Origin: Eledone cirrhosa
Lineage: Eukaryota
Direction of reading: 5' to 3'
Length of the DNA stretch: 64,000 nucleotides
NCBI GenBank assembly: GCA_964016885.1
Contig: OZ024749.1
Coordinates: 1,736,001-1,800,000 of the forward strand
In this document: piece after piece, positions 921 through 43,049 of the stretch
How positions within the stretch are numbered: position 1 is the first letter of the stretch
Layout of the letters: every line of letters begins with the position of its first letter
The notes under the pieces: model-generated
Seen by the model: only the letters and a program-made list of their open reading frames with translations
Databases searched by the model: none
What the model was told of the DNA's origin: nothing
Program-made: the position numbers and the translations under genes

Positions 921-996
921 TATATATATATATATATATATATATATATATATATACTCAATACAAAGCAGAGTATAAATATTTAATATAGAAAGG

Positions 997-1043
997 CTTC
1001 TACAGGACTAGAACTGTTTCATTCGGGAGAAATCATCAGGAAA
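997..1043 (-). ncRNA. Type-I hammerhead-like motif, family H1, in the loop of a fold-back (arms about 955-994 and 1047-1086)
   Basis: Minus strand: tttc CTGATGA tttctcccgaat GAA ACAG ttctagtc CTGT A gaag. Stem III ACAG/CTGT, GUA site. Homologous copies at 22039-22089 and 24373-24423. Confidence 0.7.
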
Positions 1044-1164
1044 AGTTTTCTATATTAAATATTTATACTTTGCTATGTATTGAGTATCTTACTTACTGTG
1101 GTTACCCCCGATTGAACCCGGGATAAACGTATATATATATAAATATATATATACACATACACAC

Positions 1165-1860
1165 ATCATCATCATCATTTTACATCCACTTTTCCTTGCT
1201 TGCAAAGGTGGGACGGGTCCTATTCAGCTCAGTATCTCTCCATTCATCACGGTCTTTCGTCATCTCTCGCCACATCTACCCATGATTTTCGTAGTCTTCC
1301 TCTACTGCATCTTCCTTACACTGGGATTTCTTAGCACTTCTTTACCCAGCGGTCATCCTCCATGCACATCACATGTCCAAACCAACGCAGTCTTCTCTCC
1401 TGCACGCTACAGTTCATCCCTCTTATACACAGTTACTCTCTCAACTCTTCTATTCTTGGTCGTTCATGCACATTGGCATTACACATCCATCGGAACATAC
1501 TTGCTTTATTTCTCTCCAGCCATCACATATCCTCTGCAGTTGCTGTCCATGTCTCACTACCATGCAGCAACACGCATCTTTCACAGGCATCATGTAACCA
1601 GCCTAAACTTCTTCCAGCCCGTCTTTATTCTAGATACTATGGCCTTGGAGCACCCTCCTCTCTTGCTACTCTGATCACCTAGGTATTGGAAGCTACACCT
1701 AGTTTCTTTAGGGACCACCAGATGACAGATCGGGGTACTCTATTGAAAGCCTTCTCTAGGTCAACAAAAGCTAAATATAGTGGCTTATTTTTCTCTAAGA
1801 ACTTCACTTGTAGTTGTCTCACTAAGAAGAGGGCATCTGTTGATGCCCTCTTCAATATTT
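1165..1860 (-). mobile_element. Decayed RTE-clade LINE, RT fragment plus 3' end, internally deleted
   Basis: Minus-strand translation gives STDALFLVRQLQVKFLEKNKPLYLAFVDLEKAFNRVPRSVIWWSL and LHGSETW...RRLRWFGHVM; (ATG)n tail at 1165-1177. Confidence 0.85.
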
Positions 1861-1953
1861 ATCATTGATTGCCAGCTAAATTAACTAAAGGGATAAAAAA
1901 TATACGGAAGCGAAAACCAACCAAACAGTGAGTGTGTTTTATTATATATTTCT

Positions 1954-2143
1954 GGCGGTGGATTGGCAGTATCGGTAGAGGGTCGAATGCCCTGCTTTCC
2001 AGCATAGTTACGTCCCTTAACGATCTTAGTTCAAATCCCGCTGAAGTTGACTTTGCCTTTCATCCCTACGGGGTCGATAAAATAAAGTACCAATAATACA
2101 CTGGGTAATTGCTGGCCTTGTGCCAAAAAGTAGAAACAATTAT
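1954..2143 (+). mobile_element. Full-length tRNA-derived SINE (family S1) with target-site duplication
   Basis: A-box tggcagtatcgg, B-box gttcaaatccc, body gcctttcatccctacggggtcgataaaataaagtacc, tail ggccttgtgccaaaaagtagaaacaattat; attatatatttctggc at both ends (1941-1956, 2139-2154). Confidence 0.9.
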
Positions 2144-37534: not shown

Positions 37535-38108
37535 TATTTATTAAAATAACAGATTAAAGTTTAAGTAAAGAATCGATGCTTTCACCCTTAACGGGATCTT
37601 CTGAAACTATAAAAAATCAATGTGTGAAAGCAGAGGTAAATATTTCGAAAAAATTTGCAGCCGAAGGGAAAAAGGAAGATGATACTTTGGTTCGTGAAGA
37701 CGTTCCCTGGCAATGAACGAACAAAGGCGATGATATTTACGTCGGTGTATGGAGCGACGAGAACAACACATTAAACTCCGGAGCTGAGAATCATTCGGTT
37801 TCCTAAATAGAGTATTGGTCTAATGAATTCATTTATACCATAAAGGTGGTATTGGTTTTGTGTCTTTGCGTGAAATTGTTCTTATCGCTCCACATAACGC
37901 TGTAATTATCCTCGTTTTTTCCCGTTCATTGCCAGGGAATATCGCCACGAACCAAAGTATCGTTTTTTCGTTTTCCTTCAGTTGCAACCTTTTTTCGAAA
38001 TATTTACTTCTGCGTCCACAGATTGTTTTTTTTTAGTTTCAGAAGATCCCGTTAAGGGTGAAAACAGCGATTCTCTGCTTAAACTTTAATCTGTTATTTT
38101 AATAAATA
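37535..38108. mobile_element. Inverted pair of family H2 units (diverged arms about 230 bp)
   Basis: tatttattaaaataacagattaaagtttaag... versus ...cttaaactttaatctgttattttaataaata; a CAGAAGA motif in each arm. Confidence 0.85.
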
Positions 38109-38608
38109 TTTGCTCTAGGTTTCTTTTAAATATATTTTTTATGTATTTATTATCCTTATCGAGCCATCTTTGGATTTAGTCTTCACATTTATTTTTATTA
38201 TTACCACACACACACACACACACACACATATATATATATATATACACCTATATATATACATATATATATATATATATATATATATATATATATATATATA
38301 TATACATATATATATATACATATATATATATACATATATATATATATATATATATATATACATATATATATATACATATATATATATATACATATATATA
38401 TATATATATATATATATATATATATACACACACACATATATATATATATACATATATATATATACATATATATACATATATACATATATATATATACATA
38501 TATATATATATATATATATGGCTGCAGTAATATTCCATTGAAGATGCTGAACGGCTCATAGTTTCAGTGTTTCTACTGTTAACAATAGACTGACATTATT
38601 ATTGTATT

Positions 38609-38898
38609 GTGGTGGTGTAGTCTGCGCTAACCTACCAATATTTCTGTCTTGGGGTGGTGTAGTCTGCGCTAACCTACCAATATTTCTGTCTTGGGGTGGT
38701 GTAGTGTTGTGCTAACCTACCAATATTTCTGTCTTGGGGTGGTGTAGTCTGCGCTAACCTACCAATATTTCTGTCTTGGGGTGGTGTAGTGTTGTGCTAA
38801 CCTACCAATATTTCTGTCTTGGGGTGGTGTAGTGTTGTGCTAACCTACCAATATTTCTGTCTTGGGGGTGGTGTAGTGTTGTGCTAACCTACCAATAT
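38609..38898. repeat. 42-43-bp minisatellite (ggtggtgtagtctgcgctaacctaccaatatttctgtcttgg)
   Basis: About 7 tandem copies. Confidence 0.93.
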
Positions 38899-41800
38899 CT
38901 TTATTTAAAGGGTTACAGGTGGATAAGTTGAAAAATAAAGAAGTGAAAACATATTTATATCTGACTGTCTCAATGTGTGAACGTATGCAAATATGTGATT
39001 GAGCTTGTTTATGTATACCAATGTATGTATGTATATATATATATATATATATATATATATACCTTTGTATATACATAAATATATATATATAAATATATAT
39101 ATATATATATATATATACCTTTGTATATACATAAATATATATATATAAATATATATATATATATATATATATATATACGTTTGTATATACATAAATATAT
39201 ATATATAAATATATATATATATATATATATATATACCTTTGTATATACATAAATATATATATATATATATATATATATAAATATATATATATATATATAT
39301 ATATATATATATATATATATATATAAATATATATATATATATATATATATATATATATATATATATATATATATATATATAAATATATATATATATAAAT
39401 ATATATATATATATATATATATATATATAAATATATATATATATATATATATATAAATATATATATATATATATATAAATATATATATATATATATAAAT
39501 ATATATATATATATATATAAATATATATATATATATATAAATATATATATATATATATAAATATATATATATATATATATAAATATATATATATATATAT
39601 AAATATATATATATATATATAAATATATATATATATATATAAATATATATATATATATATATATATATATATATATATATATATATATATATATATATAT
39701 ATATAAATATATATATATATATATATATATATATAAATATATATATATATATATATATATATATATATATTTATATATATATATATATATATATATATAT
39801 ATATATATATATATATATATATATATTATTATTACTAGTATATATATGTATGCTCGATAAGGATAATAAATATGGATATATATACACATATCCATATATA
39901 TCCATATATATATATATGTATATATATATATATATACGTATATGTATATATATATACATAAGTATCTATATATGCATATATATGGATACGTGAGCAGCAC
40001 TTTACACAAAGTTATATACATAAATACATACATGCATATATATATAAATATGTATATATATATACACACACACACACACACACACCACACACACACACAC
40101 ACACATATATATATATATACACACACACATATATATATACATATATATATATATATGGATATATATGTACATATATATATGTATGTATATACATATACAT
40201 ACATATATATATATATATATATATATATATATATATATATATATACATATATGTATATACATATACATACATATATATATATATATCTATATATATATAT
40301 ATATAAATATATAGATAGATACATATATCCATCTCTCTCTCTTTATATATATATATACATACATACATATATCTATGTATATATATATATATATATATAT
40401 ATATATATATATATATATATATATATATATATAGATACATATATCTATGTATATATATATATATACATATGTATGCATATATATATCTATGTGTGTATAT
40501 ATATATATATATATGTATATATATATCTATGTGTGTATATATATATATATATATATATATATATATATATACACACATAGATATATATATACATATAACT
40601 ATGTATGCATATGTATATACATATAGATATATATACATATATATACATATATCTATATCTATATATATATCTATATCTATATATATATATATGGATATAT
40701 ATGTACATATATATATATATAGATACATATATTTATGTATATATATATATATAATGTATGGAGATATATGTATATATATATATATACACACATATATCTA
40801 TGTATGTATATATATCTATGTATATATATATATATATATATATATATATATATATATATATATATATATGTTTATCTATATATATATATATATATATTTA
40901 TCCATATACATATATATATCCATATATATACGTATATGTATACCCATATATAACAGAGAATACATATAGGGGAATATGTACAAAAGGATGAACAAATCTT
41001 TCTTTGTATATCAACAAATACCGAACCAAAAGGTCGAAAGATAGTTTGTAAAAACGAACAAACATGTAAATCAATCCAGAATGAAAGAATAGCCTAGTCT
41101 GTAGGCATCGTTGCTGGCTCAACTGATCTTTAATACTTGTAACTGTATATCCATGTATTTGGTTGTTTTTCTAGGGCCACAGAAGACATGTTTCTATGGA
41201 AGTAAGCATTCACACATATAGATATGTATATTATATGATGTGTATATATATGTAATGCATATATATATATATATATATATATATATATATATATATATAT
41301 ATATATATATATATATATATATATATATATATATATATATATATATATATATATATATATATATATATATATTTATATATATATATATATAGCTTTTGAT
41401 TCCAGAGTCGGGCTAGATCGATACAGATCGAACCTTGAGCTGATCAATAGCGAAACGCACATCACCACACAATAAACATAATGAAGTCATAACAAATCGT
41501 CCTTTTTATTATATATATATATATACATATATATATATATATATATATATATATATATATATATATATATATATATATATATATATATATATATATATAT
41601 ATATATATGTATATATATATATATATATATATATATATGTATATATATATGTATATATATATGTATATATATATATATATATATATATATATATATGTAT
41701 ATATATATATATATATGTATATATATGTATATATATATATATATGTATAATATATATATATATGTATAATATATATATATATATATATATACATATATAT

Positions 41801-43002
41801 GTATATATATATATGTATATATATATATATATATATGTGTGGAGGAGGATATTTATATATACATATATGTATATATACATATATATACATATATATATAT
41901 GTATATATATATGTATATGTATATGTATATGTGTGTGTGTGTGTCTATTTATATACATATATATGTGTATATATATATATATGGATATATAATACATGAA
42001 ATACAATGCTTACATATATATATATATATATACATAAATACATACATATATATATATATATATATATATATATATATATATATATATATATATATATATA
42101 TATATATAAATATATATATATATACATACATACATACATTCATATATATATATATAATCACATATCTAAATAGATATATGTATGCCCGTAAGTAAACACC
42201 TTAAATCGAAGAATTTTCAGACGAAATTGGTAAATCTTGTTTAACATTGCCACAGACATTAAGGCCTCTAGAATCTTTAAGAGAAAGATTCGACTCATAA
42301 CTGTGTAATTCCCAACAGAAACAAGAATAACAACCAGAATAGAAGGAAGAATAACAACAGCAACAACAACTGGAACAACAACAACAATAACAGCAACAAT
42401 AACTGGAACAACAACAACAATAACAGTAACAATAACTGGAACAACAACGTAATGGAAACCACAAGAACAAAGTTTAAACAGAAATATAAAGGTGACAAAA
42501 TTATATATATATATATATATATATATATACATATATATACATACATACATATATATACATATATATATGTATATATATATATATATATATATATACATAT
42601 ATACATTTATATACATATATATATATACATATATACACATACATATATATATATGTATATATACATATATATACATACATACACATATATATATATATAT
42701 ATAAATGGTCATATACTATCTACATTGTAATATAATACAGAGTTTATTAACCTAAATTATATCGACAATACAACTTGTCAAATAAATAAATCTAATTATA
42801 AAGATATAAGTTAATGACTATATTTAATATCGTCATTCCGAACAGTAGCGTCAAGCCTGAATAGAAATATCATTCATTATTCCTAGATTTCTATTTAATT
42901 CTGAATATTTCGAATCAAATATTTCCTATTTTCTATATTTTATCTCGTTGTACCCTCTCAGTTTGTGTTTGCCATAATTCTTCTTATAACTGTTATGCAA
43001 TA

Positions 43003-43049
43003 CGCCTGATGATGTCGCTAGGATTTTACTGGCCTTTGAAATATATGCG
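43003..43049 (+). ncRNA. Decayed hammerhead-like motif
   Basis: cgc CTGATGA tgtc gctag gatttta ctggc cttt GAAA TATAT gcg, then aaaataaa. Confidence 0.5.

Follow-up and report, generated by a model that had tools for sequence, protein, structure and literature searches.

The window analysed here, a stretch of 64,000 nucleotides (64 kb) of Eledone cirrhosa contig OZ024749.1, contains 21 type-I hammerhead ribozyme (HHR) sites in 13 sequence families, together with decayed ones. The explanation that we hold with high confidence is that these motifs are HHR folds in the pseudo-LTRs (pLTRs) of Penelope-like elements (PLEs), mostly of the Hydra clade, and in ORF-less derivatives, of which short stubs of the 3' end were left within (TA)n. 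Analysis of the sequence confirms the predicted hammerhead folds of the window as real and places them at the tail ends of truncated PLEs within TA repeats. The link between PLEs, HHRs and (TA)n is already published (PMC4209133; PMC8557442), among others for a Hydra element from Octopus; the load, the family diversity and a core with A at position 4 (A4) seem to be undescribed.

The first-pass annotation had listed about 20 type-I HHR-like motifs and this was borne out, as core boxes in type-I order are present at all 21 listed sites, where they had been placed or a few bases away, and both boxes are unaltered in 18 of them. The core lesions are G12>A at 20736, A15.1>G at 21325 and A9>G with a stem II deletion at 21420. 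The type-I consensus (C3-U4-G5-A6-N7-G8-A9, GAAA, UH, three helices, ends in stem I) is complete in 10 of the 21 sites and the rest carry lesions. An automatic parse, with six sites read by eye, gives ten complete-looking sites (997, 4413, 7535, 22453, 24521, 25191, 30218, 30550, 30786 and 31590) and ten lesion-bearing ones (7645, 20736, 21325, 21420, 22039, 24373, 37558, 38035, 43003 and 17969). The cleavage positions predicted earlier at 22489, 25247, 30888 and 31694 agree with this re-parse, and the palindromic stem III was confirmed. More than ten unrelated families had been proposed; 13 families do differ in sequence, but their origin is common and most are Hydra-clade PLEs.

Among families the departures from the consensus are A4, C4 and A6a variants, and those fixed in this genome are A4, A6a and U3-A8; core position 7 varies freely while the other core bases are kept. 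Family J, judged from its sequences, is a young family in which core position 4 is always A (53 of 53 strict matches, overlapping loci included). Such a core was not found in the literature searched, and a 2017 paper in RNA Biology on dimeric variants of PLE hammerheads may describe one. Compensatory changes between subfamilies were found at two pairs in stem I of family A and at one pair in stem II of family E, with slid controls much lower; the rows are related sequences, hand-picked for an intact first box, and the three pairs are compatible with shared ancestry. One cluster of 44 sequences was a satellite artefact.

Nine of the 13 window families lead to PLE pLTRs elsewhere in the 3.0-Gb genome (seven Hydra-type, one Neptune-type and one Poseidon-type), with ORFs counted in the same orientation as the HHR, and the proposed link of the families to PLE ORFs was thereby found. 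The window itself gave no PLE protein match, in agreement with the earlier statement that no PLE reverse transcriptase (RT) is visible there. Family G, linked to a PLE ORF at 6 of 7 extended loci, includes an intact 738-aa Hydra-type PLE at locus L250, where a 738-codon open frame lies between two HHRs; its window copies are an insertion at 24478..24840, with an intact HHR (24519-24584, minus) and an inverted partial copy with a tail, and the damaged G-type HHR at 21417..21460 (minus). Family J (ORF link at 14 of 29 loci) left a 3' stub at 29918..30287 (plus), whose intact A4 HHR is at 30218-30268, and an inverted pair at 37530..38200 (37558-37608 minus, 38035-38085 plus) with stem III lesions. 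A look-up of RNA data sets for the family J stretch listed none. The family L stub (31080..31760, plus; intact HHR 31589-31703) has ORF-linked relatives at 15 of 24 loci, and the inverted pair of family K (30324..30944; HHRs 30550-30655 minus and 30786-30891 plus, with C at core position 4) at 4 of 19. For family E (20736..20791, plus), which belongs to the pLTR of a Hydra-type PLE, the link was seen at 7 of 24 loci, and L266 has an HHR on each side of the ORF. Family I (stub 25100..25290, plus; intact HHR 25191-25254) had been taken from one locus as purely ORF-less, which was rejected, since 16 of 20 loci run into an ORF that begins downstream of the pLTR. Family A, with 1518 first-look candidates genome-wide, is linked to a Hydra-type PLE at one locus only (L258). 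It is present as a stub at 957..1128 (minus; HHR 997-1043), with an inverted 3' end and a tail and with the 5' strand of stem I at the inversion junction, as a stub at 21952..22110 (minus; HHR 22039-22089, broken stem I) and as a 3' UTR stub at 23890..24425 (plus; HHR 24373-24423, closing-pair lesions). Besides L250 and L266, HHR-bearing pLTRs flank the ORF at L100, in a U3-A8 family.

At six loci of family F the HHR lies ~380 nt past the stop of an ORF with RT, CX5CxxC and GIY-YIG, and its window stub (21108..21391, minus; HHR 21325-21363) corresponds to the 3' UTR of a Neptune-type PLE. The inverted pair of family C (7390..7780; HHRs 7535-7569 minus and 7645-7676 plus) belongs to the pLTR of a Poseidon-type PLE, as seen at loci L110 and L114. 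In full-length members one ORF encodes both RT and, at its C-terminus, GIY-YIG. In family F these were found as Pfam RVT_1 and GIY-YIG; the Hydra-type ORFs are supported by motifs, tblastn and Atlas, and Pfam gave no family in the two that were scanned. The best GIY-YIG matches in the genome are mostly families without a strict HHR in the following 1.5 kb.

No ORF link was found for families B, D, M, N, O and P, and for B and N there was no ORF within 1.5 kb at 19 other loci each. The family B HHR (4413..4534, plus) has a long stem II, a palindromic stem III and a 3-bp stem I. Site D (17969..18016, minus) has intact core boxes and stem II and no clear 3' strand of stem I, and site M (43003..43044, plus) is an HHR minus one base at the UH site, with one relative seen, 70% identical, at L004. 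The site near 13150 had been described as decayed; it is instead a family N inverted pair (13145..13281; 13145-13195 minus, 13230-13281 plus) in which one extra core base after A6 is fixed. The same description of 14292, 14412 and 41391 stands in part: at 14288..14520 (plus), 14292 has core boxes without stem I, with no second copy among the loci examined, and 14412 is a damaged copy of family P, whose 3' half without the first core box lies at 41392..41500 (plus).

Clade names are putative and were assigned from the motifs in one paper alone (Craig et al., 2021, PMC8557442). The family G ORF carries the marks given for Hydra in the part of that paper used here (RWR, DKT, CxCX5C, CxxC and CxH). 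The RWK-like and DKT motifs appear as RWR and DKT in G, as RWK and DKT in I (read from DNA) and as RWR in J (L119) and E (L266), and were not seen for K, L and A, whose N-termini were not recovered. The CxCX5C linker, CxxC and CxH, with no CCHH, were found in G, J, L, E and K and partially in A, and the Hydra-type endonucleases share 32-50% identity among the six families compared. Family F has the Neptune marks, which are a CX2-5CxxC linker (also common to Nematis), a CCHH endonuclease and DKG.

The anatomy of the copies is that of PLEs, with 5' truncation, inverted partners, an optional tail, two discrete 3' ends (bimodal in families G, J, A and K) and (TA)n targets. A sample of 390 kb of evenly spaced genome gave 41 strict motifs (shuffles 0-1), of which 36 have a (TA)5 run within 250 nt downstream against 17% of background positions, all families pooled, as expected of Hydra-clade insertion; 12 have an inverted partner and none has an ORF fragment within 2 kb upstream. 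The nearby AATAAA reported earlier is enriched (17 of 41 sampled motifs vs 7% background) but is not general, being present in 3 of 21 window parses. A start of the copies at the cleavage site was considered and rejected, as the 5' end is within 3 nt of it in 2 of 176 copies; the copies span this site, and so the cut RNA would not have been the template. Joining of inversions through stem I complementarity was also rejected as a general rule (1 of 73 copies). A likely mechanism is that the GIY-YIG nuclease nicks (TA)n, as published work suggests, and that target-primed reverse transcription begins at points 20-230 nt 3' of the ribozyme and ends prematurely. The two 3' ends would then mark two sites at which reverse transcription of uncut RNA begins (PMC11167929). 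Since the HHR adjoins these start sites, almost every insertion, even a short one, would carry an HHR, which would explain the high copy number.

One possible option is that most motifs belong to self-standing retrozymes whose cycle passes through a cleaved, circular RNA and which have a PLE ORF beside them, or helping them, only now and then. Family H fits this description, as its ~440-nt unit (22336..22780, plus; intact HHR 22453-22495) is ORF-less and circularly permuted: of the 21 copies that extend to the 5' start, 17 have the unit's own 3' end before them (a head-to-tail junction) and none has an ORF there, and tandem dimers exist at L144 and L161. As a circle the monomer folds better than shuffles (z -6.7, inflated by a self-complementary microsatellite), and family I also has ~330-nt internal-deletion derivatives elsewhere, with tandem HHRs. 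From these features family H appears to be a non-LTR retrozyme-like unit. For most motifs such a cycle is very unlikely, because nine families continue unbroken into PLE ORFs, a tandem partner was found for just 2 of 41 sampled motifs and 5' ends do not coincide with the cleavage site. It is excluded as the general case and holds for a minority only, and these families too bear PLE insertion marks.

Returning to ribozymes left behind by PLE insertion, their palindromic stem III leads one to expect cleavage only when two copies on the same strand form a dimer, as would occur in transcripts of retrozymes or of tandem full-length elements; copies that stand alone as stubs, or head to head in pairs, should be inert for the most part. 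A highly improbable reading is that many of the ribozymes are kept by the host as functional signals for RNA processing, placed in introns and UTRs. Sites 4413 and 7645 are indeed in sense orientation in introns of a GCC2-like gene, and the motif density suffices for copies in most long introns; against this, in about half of the copies in the window the core or a stem is damaged relative to intact members of the family, a stem III of this kind is, by PMC4209133, too weak to serve monomers, and head-to-head pairs would probably form long hairpins instead.

A strict scan of the window with a custom-built scanner, which favours palindromes, gave 6 matches against shuffle means of 0.15-0.38 (four block sizes with 100 shuffles each, maximum 3), and 8 against 0.075 (40 shuffles) when a longer loop 2 was allowed. 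A first scan with obligatory 10.1-11.1 pairing gave 1 site only, and U-U closing mismatches were then permitted. In the 390-kb sample the comparison with chance was 32 matches vs 0.33. That the motifs are chance matches in AT-rich, self-complementary sequence, as the 68% AT of the window and the lack of an Rfam hammerhead at gathering score might suggest, has practically no prospect of being right when shuffles give <0.4 per window against 6-8 and the motifs form families of many copies whose position within PLEs is constant; the shuffled control proposed in the first-pass annotation thus came out for the motifs. The density of one motif per 2 kb claimed there holds only if damaged copies are counted, the strict density being 1 per 8 kb.

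By extrapolation the genome has ~3.1 x 10^5 motifs (bootstrap 1.9-4.6 x 10^5), and the sample implies dozens of families, which with the (TA)5 association supports the earlier suggestion of a large, diverse PLE or retrozyme-like load tied to TA microsatellites. The load of about this size exceeds the largest published hammerhead count that we found (126,247, axolotl). Standard tools miss it, as Rfam had no match in the window at gathering score; an E-value scan yielded miRNA models hitting microsatellites in the best 150 of its 650 rows, and ribozymes go unmentioned in a 2026 Octopus repeat annotation. A stronger reading, which we consider unlikely, is that this is the largest and densest ribozyme load recorded (~1 complete hammerhead per 10 kb, >40 families), with copies that cut host pre-mRNA by pairing in trans and with the A4 family as a naturally occurring, active variant by which the core consensus would have to be revised. 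Such pairing between separate transcripts might follow from thousands of near-identical copies per family together with the palindromic stem III.

Minimal type-I hammerheads in PLE pLTRs were described by Cervera and de la Pena (2014; PMC4209133). The motifs here resemble them in type-I order, a short stem I, an additional base ahead of stem II, a palindromic stem III and the U3-A8 variant; there, too, a genome has many families, and most copies are solo or form pairs on opposite strands, 100-700 bp from each other. In the accessible parts of that paper the numbers are ~2,000-9,000 per genome, whereas ~3 x 10^5 are extrapolated here with different descriptors, and A4 has no mention; another difference is the length of up to 100 nt for stem II here and of 4-17 nt for stem III. 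With the Hydra-clade C-terminal EN+ PLEs, as far as PMC8557442 was covered, the elements share RWK-like, DKT, CxCX5C, CxxC and CxH motifs without CCHH, (TA)n insertion, canonical HHRs and truncated or inverted copies with a tail; its supplement lists Hydra-1_Obim from Octopus bimaculoides with a (TA)n preference. In contrast to the few Hydra families outside cnidarians there, at least seven are present here and are dominant, and tails are ~65-170 nt rather than 30-40 bp. Family H and the family I derivatives are like animal non-LTR retrozymes, for which a PLE origin was proposed (PMC7229834; bioRxiv 10.64898/2026.07.22.740005), in that each unit lacks an ORF, measures a few hundred nt, carries a type-I HHR and occurs as a monomer or dimer. 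They differ from those described in these sources, as seen in part, in that derivative and parent PLE are side by side (family I) and in the PLE insertion marks on the units. U3-A8 covariation, an A6a insertion (of low activity), the U10.1-U11.1 closing mismatch and U4C all occur among natural core variants (Perreault et al., 2011, PMC3088659), while U4A, fixed in family J, has no occurrence in the main text of that paper.

PLE hammerheads cut poorly in vitro (PMC4209133), and in the one reconstituted PLE the hammerhead is dispensable for insertion (PMC11167929). This genome is a large natural experiment on the role of PLE hammerheads, with dozens of families, young intact elements, fixed core departures (A4, A6a and U3-A8) and copies that point to an uncut template. 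If the A4 family is inactive and has spread all the same, the ribozyme would not be needed for spread, and if it is active the core consensus would widen. An intronic strand bias across ~3 x 10^5 copies would gauge cutting in vivo.

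The window has an AT content of 68% and abundant (TA)n runs, in a genome of 3.0 Gb. The first-pass annotation listed hammerhead ribozyme (HHR) motifs between these runs, and at all 21 sites that it named both boxes are present in the correct order. We used a type-I descriptor made up of the core box, stem II (a closing mismatch being tolerated), GAAA, stem III or a palindrome, UH, and stem I. It gave 6 matches in the window, compared with 0.15-0.38 in 400 dinucleotide shuffles; when loop 2 was allowed to be longer, it gave 8, compared with 0.075. Rfam, at its gathering score, found no hammerhead in the window. 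Ten sites look complete and ten are lesioned or lack part of stem I (six judged by eye; 21420, with its deletion, is counted here). G12>A at 20736 and similar lesions are confined to the copy in question, since relatives elsewhere are intact. The inverted pair near 13150, regarded earlier as decayed, instead represents a family in which an extra base after A6 is fixed, a variant described as having low activity (PMC3088659).

The first 12.4 kb contain the final exons of a GCC2-like golgin with a GRIP domain (2932-3013, 7859-8002, 8408-8518, and 12325-12404, forward strand), in which motifs 4413 and 7645 are intronic and in sense orientation. An intron also holds a broken DDE_1 DNA transposon (4600-7270; Pfam DDE_1 E 7e-19), which we take to be pogo/Tigger-like. 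Two non-PLE LINE fragments with frameshifts lie on the reverse strand (22756-23609 and 27517-29200), the second presumably R4/Dong-like by its motifs.

The inferred load of Penelope-like elements (PLEs) and retrozyme-like units was described as very large, and a sample of the genome supports this. In 39 evenly spaced 10-kb stretches (40 planned; chromosome length unweighted, small contigs left out, damaged copies and A6a cores uncounted) there are 32 canonical motifs scoring >=20, where 12 shuffles gave 0.33, and 9 with a U3-A8 core, where 6 shuffles gave 0. The pooled density of 1.05 per 10 kb extrapolates to ~3.1e5 motifs genome-wide (bootstrap 1.9-4.6e5), or 2.5e5 from canonical motifs only. 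The proposed one motif per 2 kb is reduced to 1 per 8 kb when strict matches are counted in the window, which is therefore typical of the genome and no hot spot. Published counts of about 2,000 in Schistosoma, 4,000 in coelacanth and 9,000 in Xenopus (PMC4209133), and of over 6,000 in Acropora, about 5,000 in mussel and 126,247 in axolotl (PMC7229834), allow only a rough comparison because the descriptors differ. From 309 selected and partly overlapping loci (1.46 Mb), 360 matches gave 44 clusters, one an artefact; stem III is a perfect palindrome in 27 and palindromic save for the central base in 31, in a scan that rewards palindromes.

Where do these motifs come from? The genome was searched with each family's flanks and the loci were read outward; a GIY-YIG search gave 10,596 first-look candidates, of which 150 were scored. 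As anticipated, extension reached PLE ORFs for families F, C, J, L, E, K, G, I, and A, while the flank searches found no ORF link for B, D, M, N, O, and P. In family F (21325), classed as Neptune type, the motif lies about 380 nt past the stop of an RT, CX5CxxC and GIY-YIG ORF at 6 loci. In family C (7535/7645), classed as Poseidon type, the motif comes after one ORF in L110 and, in L114, before another without the linker. The ORF precedes the HHR in 14/29 loci of J (15 counting L140), 15/24 of L, 7/24 of E, 4/19 of K, 6/7 extended loci of G and, for A, in L258 only; in I the HHR is upstream of the ORF in 16/20. Family G hammerheads flank a 738-codon open frame on each side (L250), as family E hammerheads flank an ORF with frameshifts (L266). 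Between them, the J, L, E, K, G, I, and A-type ORFs carry RWR/RWK, DKT, CxCX5C, CxxC, and CxH, the marks of the Hydra clade (PMC8557442). Six compared endonuclease domains share 32-50% identity, and among the best 120 matches to one element's protein the only named relatives are from Argonauta (<=39% identity), which makes a cephalopod host probable.

Other Neptune-type PLEs were also seen. Six elsewhere in the genome (L100, at G000:C1:145869317-145877571, L101, L105, L108, L111, and L118) carry a pLTR hammerhead with a U3-A8 core, on each side of a 938-codon open frame in L100; none was found in the window. In an abundant family (L070-L097), GAAA, a CCGG palindrome, UA, and stem II lie ~500 nt past the ORF, with a U3-A8-like first box and a weak stem I that the descriptor did not accept. 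Window 20834-21038, inverted and with no hammerhead noted, shares 83-95% identity with the distal 3' end of a Neptune-type family (L078, L080, L085, and L096).

Copies are short, as the 2 kb upstream contain an ORF fragment for 0/41 sampled motifs. Of these motifs, 27 stand alone, 12 are paired with an inverted partner and 2 with a tandem one. The (TA)n association is upheld, as (TA)5 follows within 250 nt in 36/41, compared with 17% for background positions. Counted from H17, the base before the cleavage site, 3' ends fall in two places in G (about +50/+137), J (+25/+125-140), A (+20/+90), and K (+60/+230 nt), and in a single place in F, while 5' ends are scattered (<=3 nt from the cleavage site in 2/176). 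Contig depth, which is not a copy number, is in two runs over ten times higher at the ribozyme of the J stub than in the stub's 5' part, as 5' truncation predicts. This anatomy matches the PLE pattern of PMC8557442, and the two 3' ends match the pair of internal start sites reported for RNA that had not been processed (PMC11167929). In the mechanism that we propose, with nicking and priming drawn from these two papers, the endonuclease would nick (TA)n, and reverse transcription would be primed just 3' of the hammerhead and usually halt within a few hundred bases, so that nearly every insertion would leave behind a ribozyme.

A GAGYRY hexamer occurs 20-90 nt after H17 in the tails of 7/13 families examined (A, B, E, G, H, I, and N; for example, window 4555-4560 and 22581-22586), twice in G and E with the second copy just upstream of the ORF; J, K, and L have near matches, and F, C, and L100 none. 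Found post hoc, with a chance per family of 1-25%, it could serve Hydra-type elements as a protein-binding site.

Family H (22453), whose unit is about 440 nt long, is classed from its sequence as retrozyme-like: its own 3' end precedes the 5' start in 17/21 copies reaching that start, an ORF does so in 0/21, and dimers are present. Family I has ~330-nt derivatives joining 5' UTR to 3' UTR (L350-L352), and therefore parent PLE and derivative coexist, in agreement with a proposal in bioRxiv 10.64898/2026.07.22.740005. Same-strand tandem pairs spaced 460-650 nt (L040 6459/6981, L044 8702/9356, and L101 6958/7417) belong to families absent from the window and are candidate dimer-competent units.

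Subfamilies differ at position 7 and in the stems, with three compensatory pairs, yet retain the core, a hint that the fold may be under selection in master elements. A palindromic stem III predicts cleavage as a dimer only (PMC4209133), which would probably leave solo stubs and head-to-head pairs inert.

In family J, core position 4 is A in 53/53 strict matches, with no alternative letter listed in four runs, and the family's copies share 95-98% identity with the window copy over a 200-nt flank. This U4A core was not found in literature searches, whose reach excluded a 2017 paper on hammerhead variants of PLEs, and may be a new core variant. The literature already describes hammerheads in PLEs, dimer logic, the Hydra clade, targeting of (TA)n, and one Hydra family from Octopus (supplement of PMC8557442). 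Searches for hammerhead with octopus and retrozyme with cephalopod found no survey of such a load, and the available text of a 2026 Octopus vulgaris repeat annotation, with 31 recently active Penelope-like families, has 0 mentions of ribozyme or hammerhead. The hammerhead load described here is thus an extreme case of an already known PLE-hammerhead system, with a possibly new core variant.
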